Assembly: GCA_951406725.2 (NCBI GenBank)
Contig: OX597829.1
Location: 2,542,001 to 2,606,000 of the forward strand
Length of the DNA stretch: 64,000 bases
Reading direction: 5' to 3'
From: Octopus vulgaris
Taxonomy: Eukaryota
Numbering within the stretch: position 1 is the first letter of the stretch; every line of letters starts with the position of its first letter. The position numbers and the translations under genes are program-made. This document shows, piece by piece, positions 6,470 through 64,000 of this stretch. Under the pieces are notes generated by a model that was given only the letters and a program-made list of their open reading frames with translations, had not been told where the DNA came from and made no database searches.

Positions 6470-6623
6470 GGGTCCTTATTTGCATAACTTACATTCGACG
6501 GATATTTGTCCTCGTCTTGTTTGTTTTTACCACAATGTTTTGGCTGATTTATTCTCCTGCCTTCATCAGGTGTCTTGGAGAAATTTTGAATCCAAACCAT
6601 TCCTAATGTATTTTTTGCTGATA

Positions 6624-6718: not shown

Positions 6719-8256
<1,538 letters not shown>

Positions 8257-8258
8257 GT

Positions 8259-8306
<48 letters not shown>

Positions 8307-8324: not shown

Positions 8325-8605
8325 CAAGGCAATGTCTGTAATTGAACTCGAAATCATGGGGTTAATAGCCTGCGTTCTTAACCCTTACGCTATATGCTCG
8401 TGGGCATATAATAATAACATCAGCAAAAAATATATCTTAGCAATGAGAACCCAGGGTTGGGTTCAAAATTCTACCAGGACACCTGATGAAGGCTGGAGAG
8501 TAAATCACTCGAAACGTTGTAGTAACAAGATGAGGACACATATCCGTCCAATTTAGATAATGTAAATGATGTATATAATTCCTCATCTCTAAAACGTAGA
8601 ACACT
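8325..8605. mobile_element. Family H1 element: tRNA-like head (minus) back-to-back with HHR-bearing body (plus)
   Basis: 8325-8395 is similar to the tRNA-like head at 48540-48607; 8478-8523 gacac-CTGATGA-aggctg...c-GAAA-cgtt-gt. Confidence 0.7.
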
Positions 8606-14914: not shown

Positions 14915-14960
14915 AGAACGGTAGATGTGTTTCGGCTTTCTCATGCCTCGTCAGTATGTA
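14915..14960 (-). ncRNA. Decayed hammerhead ribozyme motif
   Basis: Rev-comp ta-CTGACGA-ggc-atgagaaa-gcc-GAAA-caca-tc-ta; canonical core and stem II, weak stem I/III. Confidence 0.5.
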
Positions 14961-17385: not shown

Positions 17386-17421
17386 TATAATAGCGCACTG
17401 CTAACGCAGTAGAACGTGGTA

Positions 17422-20456: not shown

Positions 20457-20666
20457 CATTTCTTTACTACCCACAAGGGGCTACACAAAGAGGGAACAAA
20501 CAAGGCAGACAAACGGATTAAGTCGATTATATCGACCCCAGTGCGTAACTGGTACTTATTTAATCGACCCTGAAAGGATGAAAGGCATCGGCGAATTTGA
20601 ACTCAGAAAGTAGCGGCAGACGAAATACCATTAAGCATTTCGTCCGGCGTGCTAACGTTTCTGCCG
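20457..20666 (-). mobile_element. SINE family S1
   Basis: Matches S1 consensus. Confidence 0.85.
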
Positions 20667-22930: not shown

Positions 22931-23377
22931 TACATTGATTTAAAGGATGATGGTTAAAGCAAAACGCTTTTCTTAACAACCTTGCTACCAAGTAGGTGGA
23001 GGAGAACTCAAGTGGAAAAGGAGAGGAATACATACACATACATACGTATATAAAGACAAATTTATTTTTAAAAGAAATCAGATTTGTTTTGATTTTCGAA
23101 AGAAAACAATTAGAAAATGATTTATTGAATTAACCCATATGTAACATATGGATGATTCTGTGAAAGCAATTTTCTTTTTTTTTTTGCTACCTGTAAGCTA
23201 GTAGAAATGTTAGAGTGTCTGAAAAACGCTCTGTAATATTTGTCCCAAATCTTTATGTTCTGAGTTCAAATCCCACCGGGATGAATTTTGTCTTTCATCC
23301 CTACAAGGAATGCAAAATAAGTAACTTCCGGGGTAAAGGGGTAAACTTGTCTTACCTCCTTCTAAAGTAAGTATATG

Positions 23378-23605
23378 TATTTCTTTACTACCCACAAGGG
23401 GCTAAACACAGAGGGGACAAACAAGGAAAGACAAGGGGATTAAGTCGATTACATCAACCCCAGTGCGTAACTGGTACTTAATGTATCGACCCCGAAAGGA
23501 TGAAAGGCAAAGTCGACTTCGGCGGAATTTGAACTCGGAACGTAACGACAGATGAAATACGGCTACGCATTTCGCCCGGTGTGCTAACGTCTCTGCCAGC
23601 TCGCC
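23378..23605 (-). mobile_element. SINE family S1
   Basis: Matches S1 consensus; ctaaagtaag on both sides. Confidence 0.85.
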
Positions 23606-25101: not shown

Positions 25102-26389
25102 TAATAATTCCAAAGCAACAAACCCTAGAACCACTATCAGCAGAGCCACCACCACCGCCACCGCCATTATCATTAACAACAACAACAGCACTTGAAAAAC
25201 CTACACATATATACGTATATGAGGGCAAATTTACTTTTTAAAAGCAATCAATAGATTTGTTTTGTTTTTTCCATGAAGACGATTAGAAAATGATTTATTG
25301 AATTAACCCATATGTAACATATGGAAGCAATTCTTTGTTAATCTTTTTTTTATTGGCATGCTAGCAGACATGCTAGAGCGTGTAAAAAATGCTCTACAAT
25401 ACTTTTCTCGTTCTGAGTTCAAATCTCGCTGAGAACAACTTTGTTTTTCATCCTTACATGATATGTAAAAGAAATAACTGCCAGAGTAAACTTTGCTCTT
25501 CTCTTCTCTAAAGTAAGTAAAATAAGTACTGGACTTGATAGTATCAGACTCCTGGTGTAGACGCTGTCAGATGTTTATAAAACCTTCCTTGATAAACTCC
25601 TGTCTGGCGTGTGAATTTTCAAGAATATAAGGTAAAAGACTATTAGGATGAGAATTCAGGAAACAGTCGCTTCAAAGGACAATGCGAATGACTTCCTTTC
25701 TAGTTTTCTTATAATCACGACTGTGTTGAGAGTGGTGTACGTGTATGTGCGCAGTCTGGAGTCAGCTTGGAAGCAAGGCCACTTGTTCAATGATTACATT
25801 TTTACTCGATATTCATGTGATAGCCATCAGCGAGACGAGGATCTCTAGAGCACACACACTCGCGCTCATTTTCGACGACTGTGGGGTCTTCTTATCTTGT
25901 GGACTGTCGGAATCTGAAGACGAGGAAGCAATGCTGTTCTCGAAATCCTTAGTTCTCATGGTGTGTGTAATTTTCTTGACATTAGTGATCCTAGACGTAA
26001 GCGGCAGCTAAATGGCTTCTTTAAAGCAGTGGACGTTTATGATCCAACAGGGGATGGAAGATCAGATTTTTTCAGACGTCTCGAAGCAATTTTTGTGGTA
26101 CCCATATCACTACTGCTAGAGGGGTGTTAAAATTGCATTTTGGAAGCATGGCAGAACTGAAGAGGCTAGTGCAATGGAGAATAGAATAAAAAAAACCTCG
26201 AAAATCTGCTCATGAGCTTTCAACTTCCCTGTTGTATAAATGTGGACATGGAGCAACCACAGCACATCATCCAGATTGCATTTAAAGTATTTGTTAGATC
26301 AGTGGATAAGGATAGTGTTGAATATCTACAATTCACACTGGTTGACTACAAAGAGTTCAAATGTGTTCTTTGTGGTCGATTTCAATAGG

Positions 26390-27365: not shown

Positions 27366-27974
27366 CAGGCCAATCAGCAACTTCTATCTTATTAGCGGTC
27401 ATTCGAATAGCGCTATAGTATAAATAGCGGTCAATAACATAGTAATTTCCCTTTGTATAACTGTCATTTTTCATATCATTTTTCCGATGGCCGGATTACT
27501 GAAGAGATGGTGGTGTGGATTTCCACCTCGGCATCCGAAACTCAGAGTTTTATCTTGGCTACCGAATAATTGTCACATATTATATTACAGATAAATTTCC
27601 TCTATTTACATAATATTGAGGTCTCTTTCTTTCTTTTGTTATCTTACCGTTTTTACCAATATATATATATATATATATTTTCACAGAAAACGCTATGGAT
27701 TGCTCTACTATACTCAAAGCATGAGAAGTACCAGCTTCCAATTTTTTTTCTTTTCCCCTATTTAGAAAAGCATACTCAATCTCACCGGTCATTCTTGTCT
27801 ATCTTTTGATAAACTCACTAGAGGGCAGTACCTCCCTCTCTATCCTCACCATCTTCTTAAAATGATATTAGAAGAAAGTGTTGAGAGCTCGGTCGGATAG
27901 GAATGTGCCTGTCTTCAAACCTTTCAAATGGGTCTGCCCCCTCGGCCTGTTTTTGCCACAGCCACTAAGCAGAG

Positions 27975-29959: not shown

Positions 29960-30161
29960 CACAGAGGGGACAAACAAGGACGGACAAACGGATTAAGTCG
30001 ATTACATCGACCCCAGTCCGTAACTGGTACTTAATTTATCGACCCCGAAAGGATGAAAGGCAAAGTCGAACTCGGCGGCATTTGAACTCAGAACGTAACG
30101 GCAGACGAAATACGGCTACGCATTTCACCCGGTGCGCTAACGTTTCTGCCAGCTCACCGCC
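29960..30161 (-). mobile_element. SINE family S1 with ~20-bp TSD
   Basis: aattgtaacagtataccaca on both sides. Confidence 0.88.
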
Positions 30162-31396
30162 CTAAATTGTAACAGTATACCACAGCCAAAAAGCAAAGCA
30201 AAACAGAAAAATACTTGTGAATAGAATGAAATTATATGGAATTCCCCACAACAAAATAAATAATAAAGTATAGAAGTAATAGTCATGCCTCAAGACAAAG
30301 CTAAAATGAACAAATAAAATGCAAACAGATCACAAATAGGATAAACATAAATTTAACGGACGAAATATGTACCTGATAACATCGAGAAGTCTAACTATCA
30401 ACTATTCTGGTGGTTAAGTCTGCATAAACAAAAGCCAGCCACTATGAAAGAGGCAGTACAGAAGCCAGTATAACTTCATATCCTAATGATAAAACTGGGA
30501 TAGTCTGGAAAAATACAAAGTGAAAAAGCAACACCGAAATTGAACTGAAACACAATCATTTTAGCGTAATACATATGAACACACACACACACATACACAC
30601 CCCTACGTCCACTGAGTTCTACAAGCATATTCTCTGTCTGTCTATCTGTCTATCTGTCTGTTTGTCTATATCTCTCGCCTATTCTGTTTGCCTGCCACTG
30701 CTAATATTCATGCAATTTAAATTTTAATCATACTAAACATATGCATAATATACACGCACACATATATGGACTGGTTTTATTCGTTCTAGCATTCACTGTG
30801 AGGAAGGCTACTACTGCTGATCCGCTGGACGGGGAAATCCTGTGATAGTCGTGTTGCCAACACGTAGGGGCATCGCTGGAAGTTGAACGGCAGTTTAAGG
30901 CGATCTAATCAACAGATCCAATTTAATTTGCATATGCTAACAGAGGGACTGTCGCTAATAGATAATTTATTCGTAGCCCACCGGATATGCCCGACGTTAC
31001 TGTTTGGCCATTTGTATACTATATCGGCTCGACTGATTTTCGTTATGGCATTCGGTGTGAGGCAGGCTGCGGCTGATGAAACGCAGAACAATGAAATTGT
31101 GTGATGCGATAGAACAATCCACTGGTGCAGACAATCATTTCGTCATCCGATATAATCAACGCTTAATGAGCACGTGTTGTCAAAATGAGTTATTAACGTC
31201 TCTGGACGTTACTAACTCATGTTATTAGTAATATTAAACTATTATTAATGTCTCTGGACGTTAATAATAGTTTAAGGTGACCTAAACAACATTTCCATTT
31301 GAAGTTAAATATCGTAATGATATATAATATGTGTGTGTGTGCGTGTGCGTGTGCGTGTGTATTACGTATACACACACATGTTATAAGTATTATATA

Positions 31397-34791: not shown

Positions 34792-35175
34792 AATTTCGTG
34801 TTGCCAAATTTTTCGCTATGCTCAAGTTACGCATCGCCAAGGTTTCGTATTGCCTAAGTTTTGCGTTCTAGTACTTCGCGTTAGCTGAAGTTCTTGTTCT
34901 TTTTTTGTTCTTTTCTCTTTTTCTCTCGGTTTTTAGTTGTACCATATTCAACAAAGGGAATGTTTTTGACAACAAAGCAAATGAAATCTTCCAACCGTCT
35001 CAAAAACAAAACAAAAAAATAAATAAAAGGAAAAGAAAAAGTAAAGAGCAAGTTTATTGAAATACGTAGCTAAGTGCAAGCAAATATATGTAATGTATTG
35101 AACCAGAAATAATCTTTGACCGATATGAGAATAAGAATGAAAACGAAAATGTGCCAGCATTAACGGTAATTCTTA

Positions 35176-35405
35176 AGGCGGCGAGCTGGCCGAAACGTTA
35201 GCACGCCGGGCGAAATGCTTAGCGGTATTTCGTCTGCCGCTACGTTCTGAGTTGAAATTCCGCCGAGGTCGACTTTGCCTTTCATCCTTTCGGGGTCGAT
35301 AAATTAAGTACCAGTTACGCACTGGGGTCAATGTAATCGACTTAATCCCTTCGTCTGTCCTTGTTTGTCCCCTCTATGTTTAGCCCCTTGTGGGTAGTAA
35401 AGAAA
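35176..35405 (+). mobile_element. Full-length SINE family S1 with TSD
   Basis: ggcgagctggccgaaacgttagc (box A), gagttgaaattcc (box B), core gcctttcatcctttcggggtcgataaattaagtaccag; ggtaattcttaa on both sides. Confidence 0.9.
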
Positions 35406-36035
35406 TTGGTAATTCTTAACAACGACTGCAAAAGAGACAACTTTGAGGTTTAAGTCGATTGGAAATTCAGTCTTAACATGTGGTGGGTGAGTAGATGGTG
35501 ATTGGGTCTAATATTTGTTAAGTACAGAGAACGTCAGATATATTTCAATCTCTTCAATGTAATGAAATGTCTAATCACTGACATGATTTTCTCAGAATAA
35601 TCGTTTTAAGATTCCACCAAGCGTACCAAGGGTGTCACCCTTAGTAACGCACGCACCAATACAAAACGTACGCATTTCAAGTAAATATGACACGGCATAA
35701 ATGTGGTTATAAAATACTTTGTCTTCTATTTAAGATTAGAAGATTACGCCCATCTTCGTATTTAAGGTTTTTAAACTTTTAAAAATAAACCAGTTGCTGA
35801 TAATGCAAAAGACGCAACTAAGTTACCGACTCATTGTGGCGAAACGAAGCATTCATTCTAGACATTTTTACATAAAAAAGAAAAAAGAAAATCTCGTACT
35901 AACGCTAATAATTTTGATGACAAGCCTAATGGTTCTCAGAACAGCAGCGGTTTCATCGCTAACGTAAACCACATAGCTCTATCCTGACATGAAACTTAAA
36001 CAGTGTGCTACAGGTGTAACAAATAAGATACTATT

Positions 36036-36087: not shown

Positions 36088-36270
36088 GTGTCTGGGGAGA
36101 GTCGTTCTCTTTTAGTGCCTTATTAATTTAGCAGTCACCAATTTCCACTCATTTACTTATTTCTTTATTTATCGGTGAGTGTGTTAAATTAATAAGGCAC
36201 TAAAAGAGAATGACTCTTCCCAGAGACAGTAAGATATGCTCCAATACACAAATTCACATAAAGAATCTTG
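36088..36270. mobile_element. Family H3-related fold-back repeat
   Basis: 36090-36140 inverted at 36174-36228; similar to 39915-40095. Confidence 0.65.
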
Positions 36271-36849
36271 CAAATCAAATGCAAAAACTATATATATATA
36301 TATATCGGAGACCAAAGTGTATGTACGCTGCCATATGTATATAAAAAGGAACACAAAAAAAGGGACAAGTACTCAAGACATCCAGACTGAGGATATAAAA
36401 GCGGGGACAAGAAAAAACACGGACGGGTCATTCAAAGTTTTCTTTCCTCAGTCGAGTTCCAGATTATCTTTGCAATTTCGGCTGGTTATACTCGAGATTG
36501 CTCCAATCTGGCCTGCTCCAAGGAAAAACTAAGCTAAGAGCATTAGATTCCTTGGAAGAGAGCAGCGAATGTATACGAAAACAAGGACAGAAAAAAAAGA
36601 GAAATGGTACACAGATAAAAATGCAAAAAACAGGATATAACAACAGGTGTCTTTCGATTAAGGACGAATGACAAGTTTCCACCCAGTTTCTGAGTTTCTG
36701 ACTACAAATTTCACACCAAAATCATCAGTCTGCTCGACGCAGTATTAGAAAGCAGTTGCCCAACATACATTGATGTTGCAACTGTGACATAATGCACCTA
36801 GGTCTACATTATTTAATGTATAGTAGCTTGTATTTGTAGCTATAGCTGT

Positions 36850-38222
36850 TGCTTTTGTTTAGCCCCAGGTCATCCTTGGTCCAGACAGACTTATGAACAA
36901 GCATGTTCTAGACATAACCATTTTATCTTTTATTCAGACGCAGTATATCTAGGACTACAATATCTATTGTTTAGTACTTTGCTAGTAACTTCAGCTGATT
37001 CTGTTGTTGCTGTTATTGTTATAGCTGTTGCTTATGCCCAGGTCAATCCTGAGTCAATAGTCGAAAGTATAGTATGGTAGTTAGTATTAATGGTTATAGC
37101 TATTTCTCTACTACCCACGAGGGGCTAAACACAGAGGGGACAAACAAATGGATTAAGTCGATTGCATCGACTCCAGTGCATAACTGGTACTTAATTTATC
37201 GACCCCGAAAGGATGAAAGGCAAAGTCGACCTCGGCGGAATTTGAACTCAGAACGTAATGCCAGACGAAATACGGCTACGCATTTCGTCCGGCGTGCTAA
37301 CGTTTCGGCCAGCTTGCCGCCTAATGGTTATAGCTGTTGTTGTCTTTTAGTCTCTGGTCAATCCTGATTCAACAGTCCTATGATCAGAGATGTTTCAGCT
37401 ACGACAATCCCATTTTCTTTTTCAGACATAAAGAGTGTGGGCATGGCTTAGTGGTTGCGGTGCTGCACTCATGATCGTAGAACTGTGGTTTCGATTCTTG
37501 GATCAAGCAATGCGTTGTGTTCTTGAGCAAAATGCTTCATTTCGCGTTGCTCCAAGTCCACTCGCTTGCTTGCTTACTCGCTTGCTTGCTTACTCGCTTG
37601 CTTGGTTACTCGCTTGCTTGCTTGATATAGCTGGTATAATTGCAGGCTGTTGGTCCCACTAGTGCTCTCCATCGCAGACAGTTCCGTGCCAGCCCCTCTA
37701 CATCCCCCAAGGTGACGTCAAGCCTCAAGAGATCTTCCCAAAATCACATCCTGCCGTATGGTGCAGGGCATGCCATGAAACATCTTCCACTCAGTCAGTT
37801 GGCAAAAATGAGAAAGTCCTGCGATGGACCGGCGTCCTGTCCAGTGGGTAATATATACGCCACAGAAACTGGAAAACCGGTCTTATTTGTTTATATGGCG
37901 TCGATATAATCGATTTAATTCATTTGTTTGTCCCCTCTGTGTTTAGCCCCTCGTGGGTAGTAGAGAAATAGCTATAACCATTAATACTAACTACCATACG
38001 ATACTTTCGACTATTGACTCAGGATTGACCTGGGCATAAGCAACAGCAATAACAATAACAGCAACAACAGAATCAGCTGAAGTTACTAGCAAAGTACTAA
38101 ACAATAGATATTGTAGTCCTAGATATACTGCGTCTGAATAAAAGATAAAAAGGTTATGTCTAGAACATGCTTGTTCATAAGTCTGTCTGGACCAAGGATG
38201 ACCTGGGGCTAAACAAAAAGCA
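36850..38222. repeat. ~320-bp near-perfect inverted duplication enclosing SINEs
   Basis: 36850-37172 equals the reverse complement of 37900-38222; encloses an S1 copy (37100-37322, TSD taatggttatagct) and an older tRNA-SINE (37435-37875). Confidence 0.9.
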
Positions 38223-39159: not shown

Positions 39160-39393
39160 AAAGCGGCAAGCTAGCAGAGTCATTAGCACGCCGGACGAAA
39201 TGCTTAGCGGTATTTCGTCTGCTGCTACGTTCTGAGTTCAAATTCCGCCGAGGTCGACTTTACCTTTTATCCTTTTGGAGTCGATTAAATAAGTACCAGT
39301 TACGCACTGGGGTAGATATAATCGACTTAGTCCGTTTGTCTGTCCTTATTTGTCCCCTTTGTGTTTAGCCCCTTCTGGGTAGTAAAGAAATAG
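39160..39393 (+). mobile_element. SINE family S1
   Basis: Matches S1 consensus. Confidence 0.87.
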
Positions 39394-39851
39394 GTATTTT
39401 TTTTTATCAAATTGTTTCATATTGAAATACCTTATGGAATTATTACGTCGCGATTACTCACCGTCTTTCGGGTTCTAAATCGCGAAACGTACTATCCAGT
39501 TTATTTTCATGCTTGTCGATATCTGTGAGACAAATGGATGAGAAAATGTGTTTCGCGTTACGAAGGTCTACCTTACGGCGAGATTGTCAGGAGCGCAACA
39601 CTTTCGTAATACAGGGGTGCCTTTGTTGAAAAAGGGGTCGGAGAGGCATTTTCGATTTGCCAAATTGGGTCGTAATAGGAATTACTGACATAAAAGCTCC
39701 CCAACTAGCGATTCAGATGGTCTTTTTCTAGGGAAGCTTATAGAAAATAATCTCATTGTTACAATAAATGTGGTCCCTTTATTTTATCTTTTTATTCGTT
39801 CAAAGCATTTCCATAGCTTTGTCATAAACGTTCATGTTTATTTTCAGACTT

Positions 39852-40096
39852 CTATATTTCGTTTTTGGTTTGCAAGATTCTTTATATGAGTTCGTGTGTT
39901 GAAGCATATCCTATTGTGTCTAGGAAGAGTCATTTTCTTTTTGTGTCTTATTATGTGACACACTCAAAACTATTGAAAAGGTTGCAAGACGCAACGAAAA
40001 TTTTAAGACAATAAAAATAAGAAAAACGTGGAAATTTTACCAGTGAGTGTGTTACATAATAAGGCACAAAAAGAAAATGACTCTCCCCAGACACAA
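39852..40096. mobile_element. Family H3 element, inverted arrangement, U3-A8 hammerhead-like motif, 9-bp TSD
   Basis: ttcagactt at 39843-39851 and 40097-40105; 39915-39966 inverted at 40043-40095; cta-TTGAAAA-g-gttgc-aagac-gcaac-GAAA-attt-taag at 39970-40007. Confidence 0.65.
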
Positions 40097-41199
40097 TTCA
40101 GACTTTTAGTTTGCCCCTATTTCAAACGTTCTGAGTAATATAAAGCTTTCCTTCCACAAGTCCCAATTTACTCTGGTGGTTGAAAAGAAATCGGAATGTT
40201 TTTATCACATGAAGGGAAAATATGTAAGACAGGCACAGAGATAAAGACGATTTAAAGGAGTTTACAGGTGACATTTGCTGAATATTTATGACACTGAACG
40301 TATCAAACTATAACTTCTTGGATTTGTGCGATTTTAAAAGCAACAAAAGGCTGGTATTTTGTCAAGGAAAAGTAGATTTAGATCTTTTCATTACAAAGGT
40401 TAACGAATTGTATTGTATCTCCTTCGTTGACTTATTTTGCCCTCATTTTAACAACAGTAACGTTCTTGGCAGGGGAAGATTTTGTTACATCGTTAAAGGG
40501 ATCAAGTAACAGCATAAAAGTTCCATTGGTAATCCGTGTTGTTGTTTTTGTTGTTTATCTCAGGTAGACCCAGATTGAGCAAACCTATCACCAAAACCAG
40601 CTGTAAATATCCGTTCTTTCTGTACATTTATGAATGTTAGGTATCGTATCCATACCAAAGGCGTTACAACTACGACCATTCTTCTCAGATTTCGATCACA
40701 ACCTACCAAGAACAGTGTGTCTTCAAGAAAGAGCAAATTGTGGTTTTTGAAAGATTTGGTTGCTATTTCTAGCTGACCGATTGTCTATATAACAGCTTCC
40801 TTGTCGCCTCCATCATCATTTATCGCCTGACCGCCATATCCTGCCCCGGTTACAGCTAGTTCAGGCTCTTATTGATTTTCTTCTTGAAGGGATGAGTTCC
40901 AGTGGTCAGGCAGTTTATTATCTTAATGTGGTTGATTGATACTGTTCATAATAATTTCAGTAACATGAAATACTATTTTATACAATGAAATTAAATCTAA
41001 GGTTAAAAAGATTACTTCTAGTAAGTTAATTATCATAAAAGTCAGAGCGGTACCATCTGCTTTTGCCATTTTCGGAACTTTCACCCACCTTTCAATACAT
41101 TCACTCAAGGATAACACCTCTCTTTCTACTAGAGTTCTACCAAAGGTTAATGTCTCTGTCCTTATTCCTCTCTGCTACAAGACAACTTCTTTCGCCTCA

Positions 41200-45814: not shown

Positions 45815-46028
45815 TCTTTTCTACTCTAGGTACAAGGCCCGAAATTATTAAGAGGGGAATCAGTCGATTAGATCGACCACCGTACGCAACTGGCACCTAA
45901 CTTATCGATCCTGAAAGGATGAAAGGCAAAGTCGACCTCGGCGGAATTTAAACTCAGAACATAAAGACTGACGGAATACTGCTAAGCATTTCGCCCGGCA
46001 TGCTAACGATTCTGCCAATCGCCGCCTT
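45815..46028 (-). mobile_element. SINE family S1 variant
   Basis: S1 head/core with alternative tail ctactctaggtacaaggccc, also seen at 5656. Confidence 0.8.
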
Positions 46029-46910
46029 AATATGGCATGAATGTTAGCAAGTAAATGGACTCATTTGAAGTCAGCCAACAGAGTAGGTGATAGTCGAAGT
46101 TGTGGAAGGGAAGCAGGTTAGTTGACAAAGCAACAGATTAAGTCTGCTTTCTAAACATAAAACAGTCTATCATAAGGGCTTCCGTAAAATTCCCGTCGAC
46201 CAAGTATTAATTGTAAGGTTGTGGTAGACCATTACTTTAAACGTTGCTGTTGCTGAAGAAGGTGATGTGATGATGACGACGATGATGATGATGATGATGT
46301 TGATGATAGTGGTGGTGTGGTGGTGGTGGTGGTGGTGGTGTAGATGGATGGTGATGAAGATGGTCGCATTGGTATTATTGATTTAGGCAAATTTTTGATA
46401 GCAGAAAATAATTGAAAATTTTCAGATGCAGCACATTTTTTTGTTCAGTGAACAGGTTGCAGTTTCGAGTGAAGAAAATTTGACACTGTACGACCAACGA
46501 TGAATGTTTAAGTTAAGTTGACGGTCTTTGTGTGTTACTGAATAGCTAACATGTACTGACCAAGCTACAATCGTTTTAGTGCCTAAGACCAAAACACTTG
46601 CCACCAAAATACGTCTCCATCATTCCGAAATAATAATTTGTCTTTTTTATAAGGCGGCGAACAATCAGAACTCTTTGCACACCAGAGAAAATGCTGGCCT
46701 TGTGCGAAAAATCGAAATCAATATAAGCAAAAGGCCATTAATTTGAGTGGAAGGGAGAGACGTTAATATAGGTTTCAAATTTTGGCACAAGGCCAGCAAG
46801 TTGGAAGAAAGGCGTAAGTCGATTAAATCGACTCCAGAGTTCGAGTGATCATTATTTTATCAACACCCCAAAAGGATGAAAAGCAAAGTCGATCTCGGGA
46901 AAAGAATATA

Positions 46911-47968: not shown

Positions 47969-48367
47969 TGTGCAGTTTCTATTACATCTATAAGTCCCAC
48001 TACCCAGAATTGTGAGATTGATATGGCTGATAATCACACGATAACTCAGTGAGCATGTCGACATGCCAATAGGTGGTGAAAATGATACCAACGAGGGAAA
48101 GAGGTGTGTAGGAGGCACGGTTTACAGCCGTAATGCTGACATTAAATTCAACTCGGTTAAAAACATTCAGTGGTAAAGAGATATTAATCTAGGTAGAACG
48201 TTAAGTCTATCACTATTAGTTATGCCCTAGATTTATTAGTTTAGCTTATCACACCTTGGAATCTCCTTTACCACATACCACAGAATATCAATATATTGTC
48301 GTACCTTTTTTTTTTTTTTTTAGTTTCAGCTCAGAGCTGCGGCCATGCTGATGCACCGCCGTTTAAA

Positions 48368-48607
48368 ATTATTTACATTTGACGGATATTTGTCCTCATC
48401 TTGTTTGTTGTTAACACAACGTTTCGGCTGATATACCCTCCAGCCTTCATCAGGTGACTTGGGAAAATTTCGAACCTGGGTTCTCATTCCTAAGGTATTT
48501 TTCGATATTATTATTATCATTATTAGCATTATTATTATTAAGGCCACTGCCTGGAACCGAACTCGAAATCTTGGAGCTAGTAGCCCGCGCTCTTAACCAC
48601 TACGCCT
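48368..48607 (-). mobile_element. Family H1: tRNA-like head + (TAA)n linker + hammerhead-bearing tail
   Basis: Rev-comp ggcgtagtggttaagagcgcgggc...gagttcggttcc; then aataat...; then gtcac-CTGATGA-a-ggctg-loop-cagcc-GAAA-cg-tt-gtgtt (48413-48458). Confidence 0.75.
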
Positions 48608-49048: not shown

Positions 49049-49285
49049 AAGGCGGCGAGCTGGCAGAAACGTTAGCACGCCGGGCGAACTGCTTAGGGGT
49101 ATTTCGTCCGCTGCTGCGTGTGAGTTCAAGTTCCGCCGAGGTCGACTTTGCCTTTCATCCTTTCGGGGTCGATAAATTAAGTACCAGTTGTGCACTGGGG
49201 TCGATGTAATCGACTTAATCCGTTTGTCTGTCCTTGTTTGTCCTCTCTTGTTTAGGCCCTTGTGGGTAGTAAAGGAGTAGGTATT
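49049..49285 (+). mobile_element. SINE family S1
   Basis: Matches S1 consensus. Confidence 0.87.
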
Positions 49286-49741: not shown

Positions 49742-49853
49742 AGTGTGTGTGCGTGCGTGCGTGTGAATGCGTGCGTGTGTGTGTGTAAAAGTGCATGAGC
49801 CACCGAGAAAGTAAGCTTGTAATGCACTTTTGACAGGGAAAAAACGTGTACGT

Positions 49854-52800
49854 TTATTGTTTAGCGACATAGCAGAGCTGGAGGCTGCTAACAACTCTTC
49901 GACAGGTGTTGCTCATTACGTTGTATTGTCGACAAGAATGTTTAACCAGGCACGATGGCTGGTAGGGGAGGAGTGCGATGGTTCGACGGGAGTGAAGGCA
50001 GCCTGATGGTGAGTGCGATGGTTGACGGGAGTGAAGGCAGCCTGATGGTGAGTGCGATGGTCGACGGGAGTGAAGGCAGCCTGATGGTGAGGCTGACGTG
50101 TTGACGGGAGTGAAGGCAGCCTGATGGTGAGTGCGATGGTTGACGGGAGTGAAGGAACCCTGATGGTGAGTGCGATGGATGACGGGAGTGAAGGCAGCCT
50201 GATGGTGAGTGCGATGGTTGACGGGAGTGAAGGAACCCTGATGGTGAGTGCGATGGATGACGGGAGTGAAGGCAGCCTGATGGTGAGGCTGACGTGTTGA
50301 CGGGAGTGAAGGCAGCCTGATGGTGAGGCTGACGTGTTGACGGGAGTGAAGGCAGCCTGATGGTGAGTGCGATGGTTGACGGGAGTGAAGGCAGCCCGAT
50401 GGCGAGTGCGATGGTTGACGGGATTGAAGGAACCCTGATGGTGAGTGCGATGGATGACGGGAGTGAAGGCAGCCTGATGGTGAGTGCGATGGTTGACGGG
50501 AGTGAAGGAACCCTGATGGTGAGTGCGATGGATAACGGGAGTGAAGGCAGCCTTGGTGAGTGCGATGGTTGACGGGAGTCAAGGAACCCTGAGGTGAGTG
50601 CGATGGTTGACGGGAGTGAAGGCAGCCTTGGTGAGTGCGATGGTTGACGGGAGTGAAGGAACCCTGATGGTGAGTGCGATGGATGACGGGAGTGAAGGCA
50701 GCCTGATGGTGAGTGCGATGGTTGACGGGAGTGAAGGCAGCCCGATGGCGAGTGCGATGGTTGACGGGATTGAAGGCAGCCTGATGGTGAGTGCGATGGA
50801 TGACGGAAGTGAAGGCAACCTGATGGTGTGTGCGATGGTTGACGGGAGTGAAGGCAGCCTGATGGCGAGTGCGATGGTTGACGGGAGTGAAGGCAGCCTG
50901 ATGGTGAGTGCGATGGTCGACGGGAGTGAAGGCAGCCTGATGGCGAGTGCGAGGGTTGACGGGAGTGAAGGAACCCTGATGGTGAGTGCGATGGATGACG
51001 GGAGTGAAGGCAGCCTGATGGTGAGTGCGATGGTTGACGGAAGTGAAGATAGCCTGATGGTGAGTGCGATAGTTGACGGGAGTGAAGGCAGCCTGAGGGT
51101 GAGTGCGATGGTTGACGGGAGTGAAGGCAGCCTGATGGTGAGTGCGATGGTTGACGGGAGTGAAGGCAGCCTGATGGTGAGTGCGATGGTTGATGGGATT
51201 GAAGGCAGCCTGATGGTGAGTGCGATGGTTGACGGGATTGAAGGCAGCCTGATGGTGAGTGCGATGGTTGACGGGAGTGAAGGCAGCCTGATGGTGAGTG
51301 CGATGGTTGACGGGATTGAAGGCAGCCTGATGGTGAGTGCGATGGTTGACGGGAGTGAATGCAGCCTGATGGTGAGGCTGACGTGTTGACGGGAGTGAAG
51401 GCAGCCTGATGGTGAGTGCGATGGTTGACGGGATTGAAGGCAGCCTGATGGTGGGGAGTGAAGGCAGCCTGATGGTGAGTGCGATGGTTGTTGACGGGAG
51501 TGAAGGCAGCCTGATGGTGAGTGCGATGGTTGACGGGATTGAAGGCACCCTGATGGTGAGTGCGATGGTTGACGGGAGTGAAGGCAGCCTGATGGTGAGT
51601 GCGATGGTTGACGGGATTGAAGGCAGCCTGATGGTGAGTACGACGGTTGACGGGAGTGAAGGCAGCCTGATGGTGAGTGCGATGGTTGACGGGAGTGAAG
51701 GCAGCCTGATGGTGAGGCTGACGTGTTGACGGGAGTGAAGGCAGCCTGATGGTGAGTGCGATGGTTGACGGGAGTGAAGGCAGCCTGATGGTGAGTGCGA
51801 TGGTTGACGGGAGTGAAGGCAGCCTGATGGTGAGTGCGATGGTTGACGGGAGTGAAGGCAGCCTGATAGTGAGGCTGACGTGTTGACGGGAGTGAAGGCA
51901 GCCTGATGGTGAGTGCGATGGTTGACGGGATTGAAGGCAGCCTGATGGTGAGTGCGATGGTTGACGGGAGTGAAGGCAGCCTGATGGTGAGTGCGATGGT
52001 TGACGGGAGTGAAGGCAGCCTGATGGTGAGTGCGATGGTTGACGGGATTGAAGGCACCCTGATGGTGAGTGCGATGGTTGACGGGAGTGAAGGCAGGCTG
52101 ATGGTGAGTGCGATGGTTTACGGGATTGAAGGCACCCTGATGGTGAGTGCGATGGTTGACGGGAGTGAAGACAGCCTGATGGTGAGTGCGATGGTTGACG
52201 GGATTGAAGGCAGCCTGATGGTGAGTGCGATGGTTGACGGGATTGAAGGCAGCCTGATGGTGAGTGCGATGGTTGACGGGATTGAAGGCAGCCTGATGGT
52301 GAGTGCGATGGTTGAGGGGATTGAAGGCAGCCTGATGGTGAGTGCGATGGTTGACGGGAGTGAAGGCAGCCTGATGGTGAGGCTGACGTGTTGACGGGAG
52401 TGAAGGCAGCCTGATGGTGAGTGCGATGGTTGACGGGAGTGAAGGCAGCCTGATGGTGAGTGCGATGGTTGACGGGAGTGAAGGCAGCCTGATGGTGAGT
52501 GCAATGGTTGACGGGAGTGAAGGCAGCCTGATGGTGAGTTCGATGGTTGACGGGAGTGAATGCAGCCTGATGGTGAGTGCGATGGTCGACGGGAGTGAAG
52601 ACAGCCTGATGGTGAGTGCGATGGTTGACGGGATTGAAGGCAGCCTGATGGTGAGTGCGATGGTTGACGGGATTGAAGGCAGCCTGATGGTGAGTGCGAT
52701 GGTTGACGGGATTGAAGGCAGCCTGATGGTGAGTGCGATGGTTGAGGGGATTGAAGGCAGCCTGATGGTGAGTGCGATGGTTGACGGGGAGTGAAGGCAG

Positions 52801-55800
52801 CCTGATGGTGAGGCTGACGTGTTGACGGGAGTGAAGGCAGCCTGATGGTGAGTGCGATGGTTGACGGGAGTGAAGGCAGCCTGATGGTGAGTGCGATGGT
52901 TGACGGGAGTGAAGGAACCCTGATGGTGAGTGCGATGGTTGACGGGAGTGAAGGCAGCCTGATGGTGAGTGCGATGGTCGACGGGAGTAAATGCAGCCTG
53001 ATGGTGAGAGCGATGGTCGCCAGGGGTGGCGGCGTCCTGATGGTGAGTGCGATGGTCGATGACAGTGAAGGCAGCCTGATGGTGAGTGCGATGGTTACGG
53101 TGGTGGCCGCGTCCTGATGGTGTGTGCGATGGCCAACGGGAGTGAAGGCAACCTGATGGTGAGTGCGATGGTCGACGCGAGTGAAGGCAGCCTGATGGTG
53201 AGAGCGATGGTCGCCGGTGGCGGCGGCGTCCTGATGGTGAGTTCGATGGTCGACGGGAGTGAAGGCAGCCTGATGGTGAGTGCGATGATCGCTGGAGGTG
53301 GCGGCTTCCTGATGGTGAGTGCAATGGTTGACGGGGTGGCCGCTTCCTAATGGTGACTGCGATGGTTGATTGGCGTGAAGGCAGCCCGATGGTGAGTGCG
53401 ATGGTCGCCGGTGGTCTTGATGGTTAGTGCGATGATTGACGGGTGTGGCGGCGTCCTGATGGTGAGTGCGATGATTGAAGGGAGTAAAGGCAGCCTGATG
53501 GTGAGTGCGATGGTTGACGGGAGTGAAGGCAGCCTGATGGTGAGTGCGATGGTTGACGGGAGTGAAGGCACCCTGATGGTGAGTGCGATGGTCGACGGGG
53601 GTGGCGGCACCTGATGGTGAGCGCTACGGTCAACGGGAGCGAAGGCTGCCTGATGGTGAGTGCGATGGTCGATGGGAGTGAAGGCAGCCTGATGGTGAGT
53701 GCGATTGTTGACGGGAGTGAAGGCAGCCTGATGGTGAGTGCGATGGTCGACGTGAGTGAAGGCAGCCTGATGGCGAGTGCGATGATTGACGTGAGTGAAG
53801 GCAGCCTGATGGTGAGTGCGATGATCGCCGGAGGTGGCAGCTTCCTGATGGTGAGTGCGATGGTTGACGGGGGTGAAGGCAGCCTGATGGTGAGTGCGAT
53901 GGTTGACGGAAGCGAAGGAACCCTGATGGTGAGTGCGATGGTTAACGGGAGTGAAGGCAGCCTGATGGTGAGTGCGATGGATGACGGAATTGAAGGCAAC
54001 CTCATGGTGAATGCGATGGTTGACGGGAGTGAAGGCAGCCTGATGGTGAGTGCAATGATCGCCGGGGGTGACGGCGTCCAGATGGTGAGTGCGATGGTTG
54101 ACGGGAGTGAAGGCAGCCTGATAGTGAGGCTGACGTGTTCACGGGAGTGAAGGCAGCCTGATGGTGAGTGCGATAGTTGACGGGGGTGGTGGCGTCCTTT
54201 TGGTGAGTGTGATGGTTGACGGGAGTGAAGGCAGCCTGATGGTGAGTGCGATGGTTGACGGGGTGTGAAGGAGGAGCAGCCTGATGGTGAGTGAAGGCAG
54301 CTGATGGTCGAGATGGGAATGACCTTGGTGATGCGATGGTGACGGGAGTGAAGGCAGCCTGATGGTGAGTCGAGTGTGACGGGTGAAGGTCGAATGTAGG
54401 CACCTGATGGGATGCGATGTTGACGGGGGAAGGCATGAGGTGAGTGCGATGGGACGGGAGTGAAGGCAGCCTTGGTGAGTGCGATGGTCGACGGGAGTGG
54501 AGGCATACCTGATGGTGAGTGCGATGGTTGACGGAAGTGAAGGCGCGTCCTTTTGGTGAGTGTGATGGTTGACGGGAGTGAAGGCAGCCTGATGGTGAGT
54601 TCGATGATTGACGGGAGTGAAGGCAGCCTGATGGTGAGTGCGATGGTTGACGGGAGTGAAGGCAGCCTGATGGTGAGTGCGATGGTCGACGGGAGTGAAG
54701 GCAGCCTGATGGTGAGTGCGATGGGCGACGGGAGTGAAGGCAGCCTGATGGTGAGTGCGATGGGCGACGGGAGTGAAGGCAGCCTGATAATGAGGCTGAC
54801 GTGTTACGGGAGTGAAGGAAACCTGATGGTGTGTGCGATTGTCGACGGGAGTGAAGGCAGCCTGATGGTGAGTGCGATGGTTGACGGGAGTGAAGGCAGC
54901 CTGATGGTGAGTGTGATGGTTGACGGGGGTGAAGGCGTCCTGATGGTGAGTGCGATGGTTGACGGGAGTGAAGGCAGCCTGATGGTGAGTGCGATGGTTG
55001 ACGGGGGGTGGTGGCGTCCTGATGGTGAGTGTGATGGTTGAAGGGAGTGAAGGCAGCCTGATGGTGAGTTCGATGGTGGACGGGGGTGGTGGCGTCCTTT
55101 GGTGAGTGCGATGGGCGACGGGTGTGAAGGCAGCCTGATGGTGAGTAAGATGGTTGACGGGAGTGAAGGCAGCTTGATGGTGAGTGCGATGATTGACGGG
55201 AGTGAAGGCAGCCTGATGGTGAGTGCGATGGTTGACGGGAGTGAATGCTGCCTGATGGTGAGTGCGATGGACGACGGGAGTGAAGGCAGCCTGATGGTGA
55301 GTGCGATGGTTGACGGGGGTGAAGGCGTCCTGATGGTGAGTGCGATGGTTGACGGGATTGAAGGCAGCCTGATGGTGAGTGCGATGGTCGACGGGAGTGA
55401 AGGCAGCCTGATGGCGAGTGCGATTGTTGACGGGAGTGAAGGCAGCCTGATGGTAAGTTCGATGATTGACGGGAGTGAAAGCAGCCTGATGGTGAGTGCG
55501 ATGGTTGACGGGAGTGAAGGCAGCCTGATGGTGAGTGCGATGGTTGACGGGATTGAAGGCAGCCTGATGGTGAGTGCGATGGTTGACGGGAGTGAAGGCA
55601 GCCTGATGGAGAGTGCGATGGTTGACGGGAGTGAAGGCAGCCTGATGGTGAGTGCGATGGTTGACGGGTGTGAAGGCAGCCTGATGGTGAGTGCGATGGT
55701 TGACGGGAGTGAAGGCAGCCTGATGGTGAGTGCGATGATTGACGGGAGTGAAGGCAGCCTGATGGTGAGTGCGATGGTTGACGGGAGTGAAGGCAGCCTG

Positions 55801-58800
55801 ATGGTGAGTGCGATGGTTGACGGGAGTGAAGGCAGCCTGATGGTGAGTGCGATGGTTGACGGAGTGAAGGCAGCCTGATGGTGAGTGCGATGATTGACGG
55901 GAGTGAAGGCAGCCTGATGGTGAGTGCGATGGTTGACAGGAGTGAAGGCAGCCTGATGGTGAGTGCGATGGTTGACGGGAGTGAAGGCAGCCTGATGGTG
56001 AGTGCGATGGTTGACGGGAGTGAAGGCAGCCTGATGGTGAGTGCGATGGTTGACGGGATGAAGGCAGCCTGATGGTGAGTGCGATAGTTGACGGGGGTGG
56101 TGGCGTCCTTTTGGTGAGTGTGATGGTTGACGGGAGTGAAGGCAGCCTGATGGTGAGTGCGATGGTTGACGGGAGTGAAGGCAGCCTGATGGTGAGTGCG
56201 ATGGTCGACGAGAGTGAAGGCAGCCTGATGGTGAGTGCGATTGTTGACGGGAGTGAAGGCAGCCTGATGGTGAGTGCGATGGCTGACGGGAGTGAAGGCA
56301 GCCTGATGGTGAGTGCGATGGTTGACGGGGGTGAAGGAACCCTGATGGTGAGTGCGATGGTTGACGTGTGTGAAGGCAGCCTGATGGTGAGTGTGATGGT
56401 CGCCAAGGGAGGCGGAGTCCTGATGGTGAGTGCGATGGTTGACGGGAGTGAAGGCAGCCTGATGGTGAGTGCGATGGTCGCCGGGGGTGGCGGCGTCCTG
56501 ATGGTGAGTGCGATGGTCGACGGGAGTGAAGGCAGCCTGATGGTGAGTGCGATGGTCGACGGGGGTGGCGGCGTCCTGATGGTGAGTGCGATGGTTGACG
56601 GGAGTGAAGGCAGCCTCATGGTGAGTTCGATGGTGGACGGGGGTGGTGGCGTCCTTTTGGTGAGTGCGATGGGCGACGGGTGTGAAGGCAGCCTGATGGT
56701 GAGTAAGATGGTTGACGTGAGTGAAGGCAGCTTGATGGTGAGTGCGATGATTGACGTGAGTGAAGGCAGCCTGATGGTGAGTTCGATGATTGACGGGAGA
56801 GAATGCTGCCTGATGGTGAGTGCGATGGACGACGGGAGTGAAGGCAGCCTGATGGTGAGTGCGATGGTTGACGGGGGTGGCGGCGTCCTGATGGTGAGTG
56901 CGATGGTTGACGGGAGTGAAGGCAGCCTGATGGTGAGTGCGATGGTTGACGGGAGTGAAGGCAGCCTGATGGTGAGTGCGATTGTTGACGGGAGTGAAGG
57001 CAGCCTGATGGTGAGTGCGATGGTTGACGGGAGTGAAGGCAGCCTGATGGTGAGTGCGATGGATGACGGAATTGAAGGCAACCTCATGGTGAATGCGATG
57101 GTTGACGGGAGTGAAGGCAGCCTGATGGTGAGTGCGATGGTTGACGGGAGTGAAGGCAGCCTGATGGAGAGTGCGATGGTTGACGGGATTGAAGGCAGCC
57201 TGATTGTGAGTGCGATGATTGACGGGTGTGAAGGCAGCCTGATGGTGAGTGCGATGGTTGACGGGATTGAAGGCAGCCTGATGGTGAGTGCGATGGTTGA
57301 CGGGTGTGAAGGCAGCCTGATGGTGAGAGCGATGGTTGACGGGAGTGAAGGCAGCCTGATGGTGAGTGCGATGGTTGACGGGAGTGAAGGCAGCCTGATG
57401 GTGAGTGCGATGGTTGACCGGAGTGAAGGCAGCCTGATGGTGAGTGCGATGGTCGACGGGAGTGATGGCAGCCTGATGGTGAGTGCGATGGTTGACGGGA
57501 GTGAAGGCAGCCTGATGGTGAGTGCGATGGTTGACGGGAGTGAAGGCAGCCTGATGGTGAGTGCGATGGTTGACGGGAGTGAAGGCAGCGTGATGGTGAG
57601 TGCGATGGTTGACGGGAGTGAAGGCAGCCTGATGGTGAGTGCGATGGTTGACGGGGTGAAGGCAGCCTGATGGTGAGTGTGATGGTTGACGGGAGTGAAG
57701 ACACCCTGATTGTGAGTGCGATGGTTGACGGGAGTGAAGGCAGCCTGATGGTGAGTGCGATGATTGACGGGAGTGAAGGCAGCCTGATGTTGAGTGCGAT
57801 GGTCGACGGGAGTAAAGGCAGCCTGATGGTGAGTGCGATGGTTGACGGGAGTGAAGGCAGCCTGATGGTGAGTGCGATGGTTGACGGGGGTGAAGGCGTC
57901 CTTTTGGTGAGTGCGATGGTCGACGGGAGTGAAGGCAGCCTGATGGTGAGTGCGATGGTTGACGGGATTGAAGGCAGCCTGATGGTGAGTGCGATGGTTG
58001 ACGGGATTGAAGGCAGCCTGATGGTGAGTGCGATGGTTGACGGGAGTGAAGGCAGCCTGATGGTGAGTGCGATGGTTGACGGGAGTGAAGGCAGCCTGAT
58101 GGTGAGTGCGATGGTCGACGGGAGTGAAGGCAGCCTGATGGTGAGTGCGATGGTTGACGGGAGTGAAGGCAGCCTGATGGTGAGTGCGATGGTTGACGGG
58201 AGTGAAGGCAGCCTGATGGTGAGTGCGATGGTCGACGGGAGTGAAGGCAGCCTGATGGTGAGTGCGATGGTCGACGGGAGTGAAGGCAGCCTGATGGTGA
58301 GTGCGATGGTTGACGGGAGTGAAGGCAGCCTGATGGTGAGTGCGATGGTCGACGGGAGTGAAGGCACCTGATGGTGAGTGCGATGGTTGACGGGTGTGAA
58401 GGCAGCCTGATGGTGAGTGCGATGGATGACGGAATTGAAGGCAACCTGATGGTGAGTGCGATGGTTGACGGGAGTGAAGGCAGCCTGATGGTGAGTGCGA
58501 TGGTTGACGGGAGTGAAGGCAGCCTGATGGTGAGTGCGATGGATGACGGGAGTGAAGGCAACCTGATGGTGAGTGCGATGGGCGACGGGTGTGAAGGCAG
58601 CCTGATGGTGAGTGCGATGGTTGACGGGAGTGAAGGCAGCCTGATGGTGAGTGCGATGGTCGACGGGAGTGAAGGCAGCCTGATGGTGAGTGCGATGTTT
58701 GACGGGAGTGAAGGCAGCCTGATGGTGAGTTCGATGATTGACGGGAGTGAATGCTGCCTCATGGTGAGTGCGATGGTTGACGGGATTGAAGGCAGCCTGA

Positions 58801-60392
58801 TGGTGAGTGCGATTCTTGTCGGGCGTGAAGGCAGCCTGATGATGAGTTCGATGATTGACGGGAGTGAAGGCAGCCTGATGGTGAGTGCGATGGTTGACGG
58901 GATTGAAGGCAGCCTGATGGTGAGTGCGATGATTGACGGGAGTGAAGGCAGCCTGATGGTGAGTGCGATGGTTGACGGGAGTGAAGGCAGCCTGATGGTG
59001 AGTGCGATGGTTGACGGGAGTGAAGGCAGCCTGATGGCTAGTGCGATGGTTGACGGGAGTGAAGGCAGCCTGATGGTGAGTGCGATGGTTGACGGGAGTG
59101 AAGGCAGCCTGATGGTGAGTGCGATGGTTGACGGGATTGAAGGCAGCCTGATGGTGAGTGCGATGATTGACGGGAGTGAAGGCAGCCTGATGGTGAGTGC
59201 GATAGTTGACGGGATTGAAGGCAGCCTGATGGTGAGTGCGATGGTTGACGGGTGTGAAGGCAGCCTGATGGTGAGTGCGATGGTTGACGGGATTGAAGGA
59301 AGCCTGATGGTGAGTGCGATGATTGACGGGAGTGAAGGCAGCCTGATGGTGAGTGCGATGGTTGACGGGAGTGAAGGCAGCCTGATGGTGAGTGCGATGG
59401 TTGACGGGATTGAAGGCAGCCTGATGGTGAGTGTGATGATTGACGGGTGTGAAGGCAGCCTGATGGTGAGTGCGATGGTTGACGGGAGTGAAGGCAGCCT
59501 GATGGTGAGTGCGATGGTTGACGGGAGTGAAGGCAGCCTGATTGTGAGTGCGATGGTTGACGGGATTGAAGGCATCCTTTTGGTGAGTGCGATGATTGAC
59601 GGGTGTGAAGGCAGCCTGATGGTGAGTGCGATGGTTGACGGGAGTGAAGGCAGCCTGATGGTGAGTGCGATGGTTGACGGGAGTGAAGGCAGCCTGATGG
59701 TGAGTTCGATGATTGACGGGAGTGAAGGCAGCCTGATGGTGAGTGCGATGGTTGACGGGTGTGAAGGCAGCCTGATGGTGAGCGCGATGATTGACGTGAG
59801 TGAAGGCAGCCTGATGGTGAGTTCGATGATTGACGGGTGTGAAGGCAGCCTGATGGTGAGTACGATGATTGACGGGTGTGAAGGCAGCCTGATGGTGAGT
59901 ACGATGATTGACGGGTGTGAAGGCAGCCTGATGTTGAGTGCGATTGTTGACGGTCGTGAAGGCAGCCTGATGGTGAGTTCGATGATTGACGGGAGTGAAT
60001 GCTGCCTGATGGTGAGTGCGATGATTGACGGGAGTGAAGGCAGCCTGATGGTGAGTGCGATGGTTGACGGGGGTGGCGGCGTCCTTTTGGTGATTGCGAT
60101 GGCTGACGGGAGTGAAGGCAGCCTGATGGTGAGTGCGATTGTTGACGGTCGTGAAGGCAGCCTGATGGTGAGTTCGATGATTGACGGGAGTGAAGGCAGC
60201 CTGATGGTGAGTGCGATGATTGACGGGTGTGAAGGCAGCCTGATGGTGAGTACGATGTTTGACGGAAGTGGCGGTATCCCGATGATGAGCACAATGGTTG
60301 ACGGGGGTGGTGACAGCCTGATAACGAGCACGATACGAGACGGGGGTGGCACAATGATTGACGAGGCTTGCTGTGGCCGGATGGCCAATCAA
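49854..60392 (-). CDS. Candidate repetitive His-rich protein exon (HHQAAFTPVNHRT)n, possibly pseudogenised or mis-assembled
   Basis: Long stop-free minus frames; recurrent variants often synonymous in the HHQ frame; no in-frame ATG seen and several frameshifts. Confidence 0.35.
49970..60370. repeat. ~10.4-kb GC-rich tandem array of 39-bp units (roughly 265 copies)
   Basis: Consensus gatggtgagtgcgatggttgacgggagtgaaggcagcct; variant units and block duplications; degenerate units at the right edge. Confidence 0.98.
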
Positions 60393-60534
60393 TAAAATTT
60401 TGCATCAGACAAAGTATTTCTCGTGAATGTCCCTCGACGATGAAAGATCTAACATTTCAATCATTGAATTAATGCATAAATGGCCAAGTATTACACTCAC
60501 TGGTGTTATTTTAAGAAAATAACATTGTCGAAGA

Positions 60535-63389: not shown

Positions 63390-63900
63390 GTTCAACACAT
63401 TGAAACTTTAAATAACAACTGGAACTGCTAAGGAATTTATAGCTAACACCTTGTTACGTGCATTTAACTCGGATTTTAGGACTGCTCGAACTCTCCTGGT
63501 CTTCTTTTTCATGATTGTATACTGAATGCCAGAGTCTTCATTTATTCCGAAAAATTTGCAAGTTTATTCCTGCTCAAGTTCTTCTATAACTGTGTCAACA
63601 TGTAACACCACCGAATGGGAGCTCTTCAGTTTCCCTTTCTGGAAAATGTCCTTGACACATTTACCATCATCAAATTCCACCCCGATGTCATCACTGAATA
63701 CTCTCACTGTGCGTAAAAGACCTTCAAGCTCATTATCGTCTTTGCCATAAGGTTTTAAGTCATCCATATAAAAGAGATGACTTAATTTCTTGAAGCCAAT
63801 CTTATACCCATACCCTGTTCTGTCAAGTTCACTTGTAAGAGGTGTTAGGGCTATGCAAAACATTAGAGATGAAAGTGAGTCATCTTTGAAAATTACACAA
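63390..63900 (-). pseudogene. Reverse transcriptase fragment of R4/Dong-like LINE
   Basis: IFKDDSLSSLMFCIALTPL...LSHLFYMDDLKPYG...FSDDIGVEFDDGKC; continues VLKSELNARNKVLAINSLAVP. Confidence 0.9.
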
Positions 63901-64000
63901 TTAATATTGTTTGTAGTCAGTATTCCATGTTATGATTCAGGAAGTTTGAAATCACAGGAAAAATTTTGAAGATATCCAGTGATTTCAAGATCCATGAATG

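Follow-up and report, generated by a model that had tools for sequence, protein, structure and literature searches.

A unit of 240 bases at positions 48368..48607 of a 64,000-nt stretch of Octopus vulgaris DNA (hereafter the window) joins a tRNA-like segment to a hammerhead ribozyme motif, and raises the question of what kind of mobile element produced it. The initial annotation took the unit for a stand-alone hybrid of SINE and retrozyme, derived from a tRNA, carrying a minimal hammerhead and mobilised by the machinery of a Penelope-like element (PLE). The last three of these proposals are supported by the results below. The first is not, the unit being, almost certainly, a terminal repeat of an autonomous PLE.

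The copy at 48.4 kb

The predicted arrangement on the minus strand, a tRNA-like head, a TAA linker and a hammerhead-bearing body of about 140 bp, was borne out. The tRNA-derived head occupies 48541..48607 (minus strand, as for all features of this copy) and is short of the family 5' end by about 13 nt. Its box A lies at 48597..48607, with A instead of the family T at the first base; box B follows after 33 nt at 48553..48563 and reads GTTCGG here versus GTTCGA in the family. The (TAA)n linker inside the repeat is 34 nt long (48507..48540). The body (48366..48506) is 141 nt long, corresponds to B1-141 of the model and has no 3' tail. It contains an ATG at 48485..48487, the predicted start codon, which is in frame with the PLE ORF in those copies that run into the ORF. 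A minimal type I hammerhead extends over 48413..48458, with its core CTGATGA...GAAA at 48453-48422. Its elements are a 5-bp stem I with one mismatch, CUGAUGA, a bulged A, a 6-bp stem II, GAAA-CG-UU and the palindromic AACGUU; the predicted cut falls between 48418 and 48417 and would need a dimer. ARAGORN and Rfam detected neither the head nor the hammerhead, both of which were identified by motifs, folding and alignment to host tRNAs.

A run TTTT at 48464..48467 in this copy (TTT in the family majority) would stop Pol III ahead of the ribozyme. Since the first 13 nt and the tail are absent, both boxes are changed and this T-run precedes the ribozyme, the copy is likely dead. It represents a short, decayed version of a terminal repeat belonging to a very abundant coding PLE.

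A second insertion and the abundance of the family

The inverted modules annotated at 8325-8605 and the body following (TAA)n at 6470-6625 are also real, but they are likely not two separate sites. The minus arm starts with a head at 8328..8406 (minus), which begins at the family 5' end (A432-502), and terminates in a tail-less body at 6476..6617 (minus; B3-147). Between them lies a 1.43-kb non-LTR fragment (6830..8260, minus) flanked by two TAA runs, which from its motifs we take to belong to the R4/Dong clade. A fold-back palindrome at 8392..8409, a junction type common to many loci, links the head 5' end to the inverted partner arm, a body with 3' tail at 8428..8602 (plus; B5-171). The 6.5-kb and 8.3-kb sites are thus likely one divergent pair, the minus arm of which was split by the R4/Dong fragment in its linker; no clear target site duplication was found for the pair. 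The same R4/Dong family is found at locus L039, where it separates head from body within the linker, and just upstream of head-less bodies at L024, L193, L276, L279 and L280. Many bodies follow bare TAA because this family interrupts the linker. The linker is highly variable in length, R4/Dong and SINE insertions in it are frequent, and it behaves as an insertion sink for at least two R4/Dong-like families, another repeat and a SINE (window 6830-8260, minus; L004, L006, L026, L039, L109).

In eighty evenly spaced 10-kb stretches (800 kb of the 2.8-Gb genome) we counted 13 loci with 18 body arms, which extrapolates to about 45,000 insertions (Poisson range 24,000-78,000, from these 13 loci). 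Co-occurrence of head and body is far above chance at such a density: when 30 loci were seeded by an exact 23-mer of the head, 26 had a body downstream on the same strand. Independent insertion of the two parts into TAA repeats is thereby ruled out. The ORF described below is carried by two of the 13 random loci, short copies being several-fold commoner than ORF-linked ones.

Association with a Penelope/Poseidon-like ORF

Coding sequence lies directly upstream of the head in four of the 30 head-seeded loci, and a search with the protein encoded there returned 3,924 candidates. In 28 of the 29 other endonuclease-seeded loci fetched, about 45 nt separate the RT/GIY-YIG stop codon from a head downstream of it; in 24 of these 29, a body comes next within 300 nt. 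At the other end, the repeat sequence directly precedes the ORF start in 30 out of 30 loci seeded with the ORF 5' region; two of them (L284, L302) start cleanly at the head and one (L306) has a full tandem repeat. The ORF is in the same frame as the body ATG, which precedes the hammerhead core by 34 nt. The frame from the ATG through the hammerhead into the ORF is free of stops for 100+ codons in L293 and L297 and has one in-frame stop in L284, L288 and L298, while the remaining 4 of the 9 copies shown are broken earlier. The complete architecture is thus [head-TAA-body(ATG, hammerhead)]-ORF(RT, GIY-YIG)-stop-45 nt-[head-TAA-body]. Because the head follows the ORF stop, the repeat precedes the ORF start and the in-frame ATG lies in the body, the unit can be identified with near certainty as the pseudo-LTR (pLTR) of an autonomous Penelope/Poseidon-like element.

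Locus L088 translates as a frame of 600 codons, interrupted by two stops, in which a DKG motif and an RT (Pfam RVT_1, E-value 6e-8) precede a domain with the motif YSIPCSxGRxYKGET. Pfam GIY-YIG gave no score for this family; the motif and a 52-69% identity to homologues bearing RVT_1 identify the C-terminal domain, by its sequence, as a GIY-YIG-type endonuclease. The matches with a named source were uncharacterised barnacle proteins. No extra zinc-finger linker separates RT and endonuclease in L088; such a linker is present in Neptune and Nematis and absent in Penelope/Poseidon, according to the accessible part of PMC8557442. With its single ORF of RT and C-terminal GIY-YIG, repeated pLTR, optional one-end 3' tail and minimal hammerhead, the element is an endonuclease-bearing (EN+) PLE by the features tested, its provisional assignment to Penelope/Poseidon being based on the linker architecture. 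We found no full-length copy that is intact and recently active; among the copies seen, divergence was at least 2%.

Other elements of the window

Remnants of PLE RT and GIY-YIG in the window had been noted alongside the proposal of mobilisation by PLE machinery. They are present, but they do not belong to the partner family, whose ORF has no match within the 64,000 nt. The GIY-YIG fragment at 9881-10321 (plus) belongs to a second, young PLE family (5,900 candidates; L326, L328, L336, L337), with open frames of 700-1,025 codons, a Neptune-like CxxxCxxC linker and several loci on the contig of the window itself. Within 650 nt downstream of this second family, neither a canonical hammerhead core nor a box A/B motif was found in 25 loci. 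Another hammerhead-like core, with a palindromic stem III, lies at 27498-27540 (plus); it occurs in inverted pairs at L075, L174, L181 and L129 and probably represents a terminal repeat from a third PLE family. Further CTGANGA...CGAAA matches were noted at 14930-14954 (minus), with no look-alike among the fetched loci, and at 25913-25945 (plus).

The window also contains a very abundant SINE-like family of about 240 bp, unrelated to the tRNA-derived head of the PLE, the copies of which are 75-92% identical (12799-13227, 17161-17386, 20435-20665, 23372-23605, 29960-30165, 35175-35410, 37096-37322, 39160-39399, 45856-46030 and 49049-49282). A long minisatellite of 39-bp units (49850-60450) has very long stop-free frames on both strands, and a tandem array of about 165-bp units occupies 3583-4765. 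A MITE-like inverted-repeat element is present in several copies (39912-40099, 36088-36279, 9599-9762). An RT fragment at 63564-63929 (minus) has a weak RVT_1 match, and a helicase-like fragment at 2815-3365 (minus) presumably resembles PIF1/Helitron.

Insertion signatures and the hammerhead

On the 3' side, the 294 unique body arms most often stop at B174 or B148, two fixed ends about 26 nt apart. Exactly one arm carries the longer end (the tail) in 73 of 92 divergent pairs (p = 6e-9), and flanking repeats of at least 8 nt, taken as target duplications, accompany 29% of divergent pairs versus 1.8% of mismatched controls. An inverted copy plus tail is the structure described for PLEs in the accessible part of PMC8557442. 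In PAc, the PLE of Anolis carolinensis, the available text of PMC11167929 ascribes the tail to two internal positions, shortly past the ORF start, at which RT begins, and the octopus ends B174 and B148 match this two-start-site tail. Mini-elements consisting of a pLTR, the first 160-600 nt of the ORF and another pLTR were seen at L285, L289, L291, L298, L304 and L306; identical junctions are shared within two pairs of them (L285/L289 and L291/L298), and in several the parts are rejoined at G433, the head start, or close to it.

The family hammerhead has the core, the bulged A, a G10.1-C11.1 pair, a 6-bp stem II, a 5-bp stem I and the palindromic AACGUU (loop 3). These features match minimal type I motifs, which proved inactive in monomeric form in the accessible part of PMC4209133, and the family hammerhead is likewise predicted to be inactive as a monomer. 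The core is kept in 107 of the 204 arms spanning it. Such a ribozyme could also belong to a non-LTR retrozyme, whose tandem units self-cleave, circularise and spread as circles, and some 5'-truncated arms do begin close to the predicted cleavage site: automatic calls place 28 of 109 starts at B86-100 and 2 at B66-85. On reading, at least 6 of these 28 are internal deletions, and a GTTAAC palindrome or stem pausing explains the remaining ends equally well. Copies occur singly or in divergent pairs, their ends are fixed and they form neither head-to-tail arrays nor permutations; the short ones run uncleaved across the cut site, and tandem retrozyme arrays of the unit were absent from the loci examined. 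A retrozyme is therefore a highly improbable source. In PAc, hammerhead cleavage is protein-assisted and dispensable for insertion.

The tRNA-derived head and its sharp 5' edge

The family head aligns colinearly with the host tRNA-Arg(TCG) over positions 1-72 (z = 8.6), the best match among 25 distinct host tRNA genes; the isotype is provisionally Arg, six isotypes having been sampled. Box A of the family majority matches TGGCNNAGTGG as given in PMC8969392. In the majority head, 33 nt separate box A from box B, and the head starts 13 nt upstream of box A. This spacing and this start distance both fit the rule for SINEs in the same paper; in tRNA-derived SINEs the boxes are expected 10-15 nt from the 5' end.

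Copies preferentially start at this edge. Of 140 heads, taken from all loci except those seeded in the ORF body or 3' end (head-seeded loci included), 112 start at A428-452, with a mode at 432-433, 13 nt upstream of box A. When head-bearing arms not selected for the head are considered, 42 of 54 start in the same interval, 9 inside the head and 3 upstream. The edge holds without an inverted head as well (73 of 94). The genome-wide counts of 23-mers were 9,727 for the body, 5,275 for the head in a CpG-degenerate form (1,824 without the CpG degeneracy), 746 for the UTR 42 nt upstream of the head, sevenfold below the head, and a practically unchanged 759 for the endonuclease 170 nt further upstream; these counts are not normalised for divergence, and the head pattern is degenerate at four positions. 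The same 23-mers were retained exactly in 3 (UTR), 10 (head), 7 (body) and 22 (endonuclease, selected for) of 30 long copies.

The edge may be understood in two ways. It may be the 5' end of a Pol III transcript, as developed below; the GCCC-NN-GGGC hairpin located there is a point against this reading, being able by itself to favour junctions. Alternatively, the head may be the passive remnant of a tRNA or SINE, with its edge created by a Pol II start, by RNA processing, or by an RT stop or template switch at the hairpin. The commonest junction is indeed a short fold-back on that hairpin, and the T-run evidence discussed below is modest. Moreover, PLE pLTRs typically contain a promoter according to the accessible part of PMC6765202, and the promoter of Drosophila virilis Penelope is one for Pol II, as inferred from an intron-containing 5' UTR in that of PMC8557442. 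However, ends fall at the 5' base of the hairpin, which the RT has by then traversed, and they also occur at junctions lacking any fold-back (exactly at G433 in L142, L285 and L289). A fold-back, moreover, can form only from a cDNA end that is free at G433. The edge is located at the usual start distance of Pol III. RNase P cleavage is unlikely, since the acceptor and T stems are, by reading, unpaired in the majority head. On balance, a passive head appears quite unlikely.

Origin of the short copies

If the head is an active promoter, the short copies could be either an independent SINE or by-products of the autonomous element. A true PLE-dependent SINE would consist of solitary copies transcribed by Pol III and spreading by themselves on PLE protein, the ORF being expressed by Pol II read-through. 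Its attractions are the several-fold excess of short copies already noted, the intact boxes of the majority sequence and the lack of T4 in the unit; the deleted pLTR-ORF5'-pLTR derivatives found twice each with the same junctions indicate that non-autonomous spread may exist. An independent non-autonomous family is nevertheless not what we observed: the head is part of the autonomous element's own repeat, and short and ORF-linked copies share one common majority sequence and a similar age. Their non-CpG divergences are 5.5% (37 short) and 6.3% (28 ORF-linked pLTRs), and none among about 230 sites tested distinguishes these two sets with p<0.01. In addition, the template of PAc RT must include the first 172 nt of the ORF and needs ORF sequence downstream of the RT starts, according to the available text of PMC11167929, and solitary copies lack this downstream sequence. 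The PLE-dependent SINE is therefore an unlikely explanation. Given the absence of distinguishing sites, and solitary copies without the ORF sequence that PAc requires, we favour the short copies being leader cDNAs of the autonomous element.

The leader model that we lean towards, and hold to be fairly probable on sequence and analogy, has the following course. Pol III would begin the RNA at G433, 13 nt upstream of box A, and the RNA would pass through the pLTR into the ORF. As in PAc, cDNA synthesis would then be primed by the PLE protein from within the RNA, at two positions shortly past the ORF start, each serving one side of the DNA break; the requirement for internal priming is taken from that element of another species. 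The cDNA would end at the RNA 5' end after about 250-300 nt and often snap back on the GCCC-NN-GGGC hairpin, and its joining to the second arm would give divergent pairs with one tail. PAc-type internal priming on an RNA running from G433 into the ORF would thus yield head-TAA-body with or without tail. Copies containing the ORF would require a tandem read-through RNA.

Is the coding element transcribed by Pol III?

Pol III normally serves small non-coding RNAs, and runs of four T (T4) are relevant here. T4 is absent from the 2.3-kb majority ORF, and individual copies have 0.32 T4 per kb versus 0.69 in the R4/Dong control. Phenylalanine is encoded by TTT in 2 of 15 majority codons, versus 47% T-ending codons in the other two-fold sets (p = 0.007). 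The probability of having no T4 is 0.04 with unbiased Phe codons, 0.24 when the codons are merely shuffled and 0.11-0.23 under Markov nulls. In the second PLE family, the T content of which is equal, five copies have 2-3 T4 runs in each ORF, and a sixth copy, whose frame includes inverted sequence, has seven; this family, too, lies under its shuffled expectation (2-3 versus 4-5). The scarcity of T4 thus lends modest support, at the sequence level, to a Pol III reading of the ORF.

Several observations count against Pol III. The depletion of T4 is weak under the stricter nulls (P of 0.11-0.24). Box B (conservation 0.97) is barely better kept than the rest of the head (0.94), and box A (0.94) not at all. 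Translation would be difficult from an uncapped Pol III RNA, and an upstream ORF of two codons lies in the head. Neither for nor against, three RNA-seq runs from 2026 gave equal depth on both strands, without pile-ups at start or end; such cDNA libraries pool many copies and are uninformative on Pol III. The stronger proposal, that the whole coding element is transcribed end to end by Pol III, its Pol II promoter having been swapped for a captured tRNA promoter, is put forward as a tentative possibility, somewhat short of an even chance.

Comparison with known elements

The following comparisons are drawn from the accessible portions of the papers cited. The octopus element resembles the Penelope/Poseidon PLEs, and PAc in particular (PMC11167929, PMC8557442), in its single ORF of RT and C-terminal GIY-YIG, the pLTR overlapping the ORF start, the hammerhead around the start codon, the inverted 5'-truncated partner and the optional tail from two internal RT starts. 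Unlike that of PAc, the octopus pLTR opens with a full-length tRNA-derived box A/B segment followed by (TAA)n, and most copies begin there. A tRNA-like or Pol III promoter is not mentioned for PLEs in the accessible portions of these two papers.

Schistosoma Sm-alpha and Sj-alpha (PMC6765202, PMC2770079) are likewise tRNA-related, apparently Pol III-transcribed hammerhead repeats with tens of thousands of copies. They are non-coding, often tandem, and cleave in vitro, whereas the octopus unit has a minimal hammerhead in a coding PLE; an autonomous element with the Sm-alpha/Sj-alpha unit as terminal repeat is not described in the portions of these papers available. The TRIMp3 elements Cassandra, Helenus and Ajax (PMC10886601) have a Pol III promoter derived from a small RNA in their terminal repeat, for which an origin by SINE insertion was proposed. 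These are non-autonomous LTR elements, whose autonomous partners must use Pol II as argued in that paper; in the octopus, the promoter-like segment lies in the autonomous PLE's own repeat. The octopus element thus shares the pairing of a tRNA-type promoter and a mobile repeat with Sm-alpha and TRIMp3, and is a member of neither. With non-LTR retrozymes it has in common the type I hammerhead, kinship to PLE pLTRs and many dispersed monomers (PMC7761336; bioRxiv 10.64898/2026.07.22.740005). Retrozymes, however, are defined by tandem arrays and circular RNAs and are said to be promoterless in the same sources, whereas the octopus copies occur singly or as divergent pairs and have a fixed, promoter-like 5' end.

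The unit is a terminal repeat of an autonomous element, but we found no description of that element in print, and no PLE with a tRNA-derived pLTR promoter, in the literature searched, which left out Repbase, Dfam, subscription journals and supplements. The octopus repeat library (PMC13282606, accessible in part) may hold a consensus of the element under another label.

Implications

The fixed 5' end offers a genome-scale read-out of the internal priming seen with PAc in vitro, in the form of short complete cDNAs, fold-backs and one-tail pairs. It also indicates a possible route from PLE ends to "SINEs with hammerheads" of the Sm-alpha kind, and suggests that part of what is annotated as SINEs in such genomes may be PLE ends. 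A Pol III promoter is considered the mark of a non-coding parasite; a coding PLE starting at a tRNA box A/B would, if true, contradict this view, and one would have to ask how its RNA gets translated. Should the whole-element reading be true, the leader of this RNA would have given rise, by internal priming, to tens of thousands of SINE-like, ribozyme-bearing copies.
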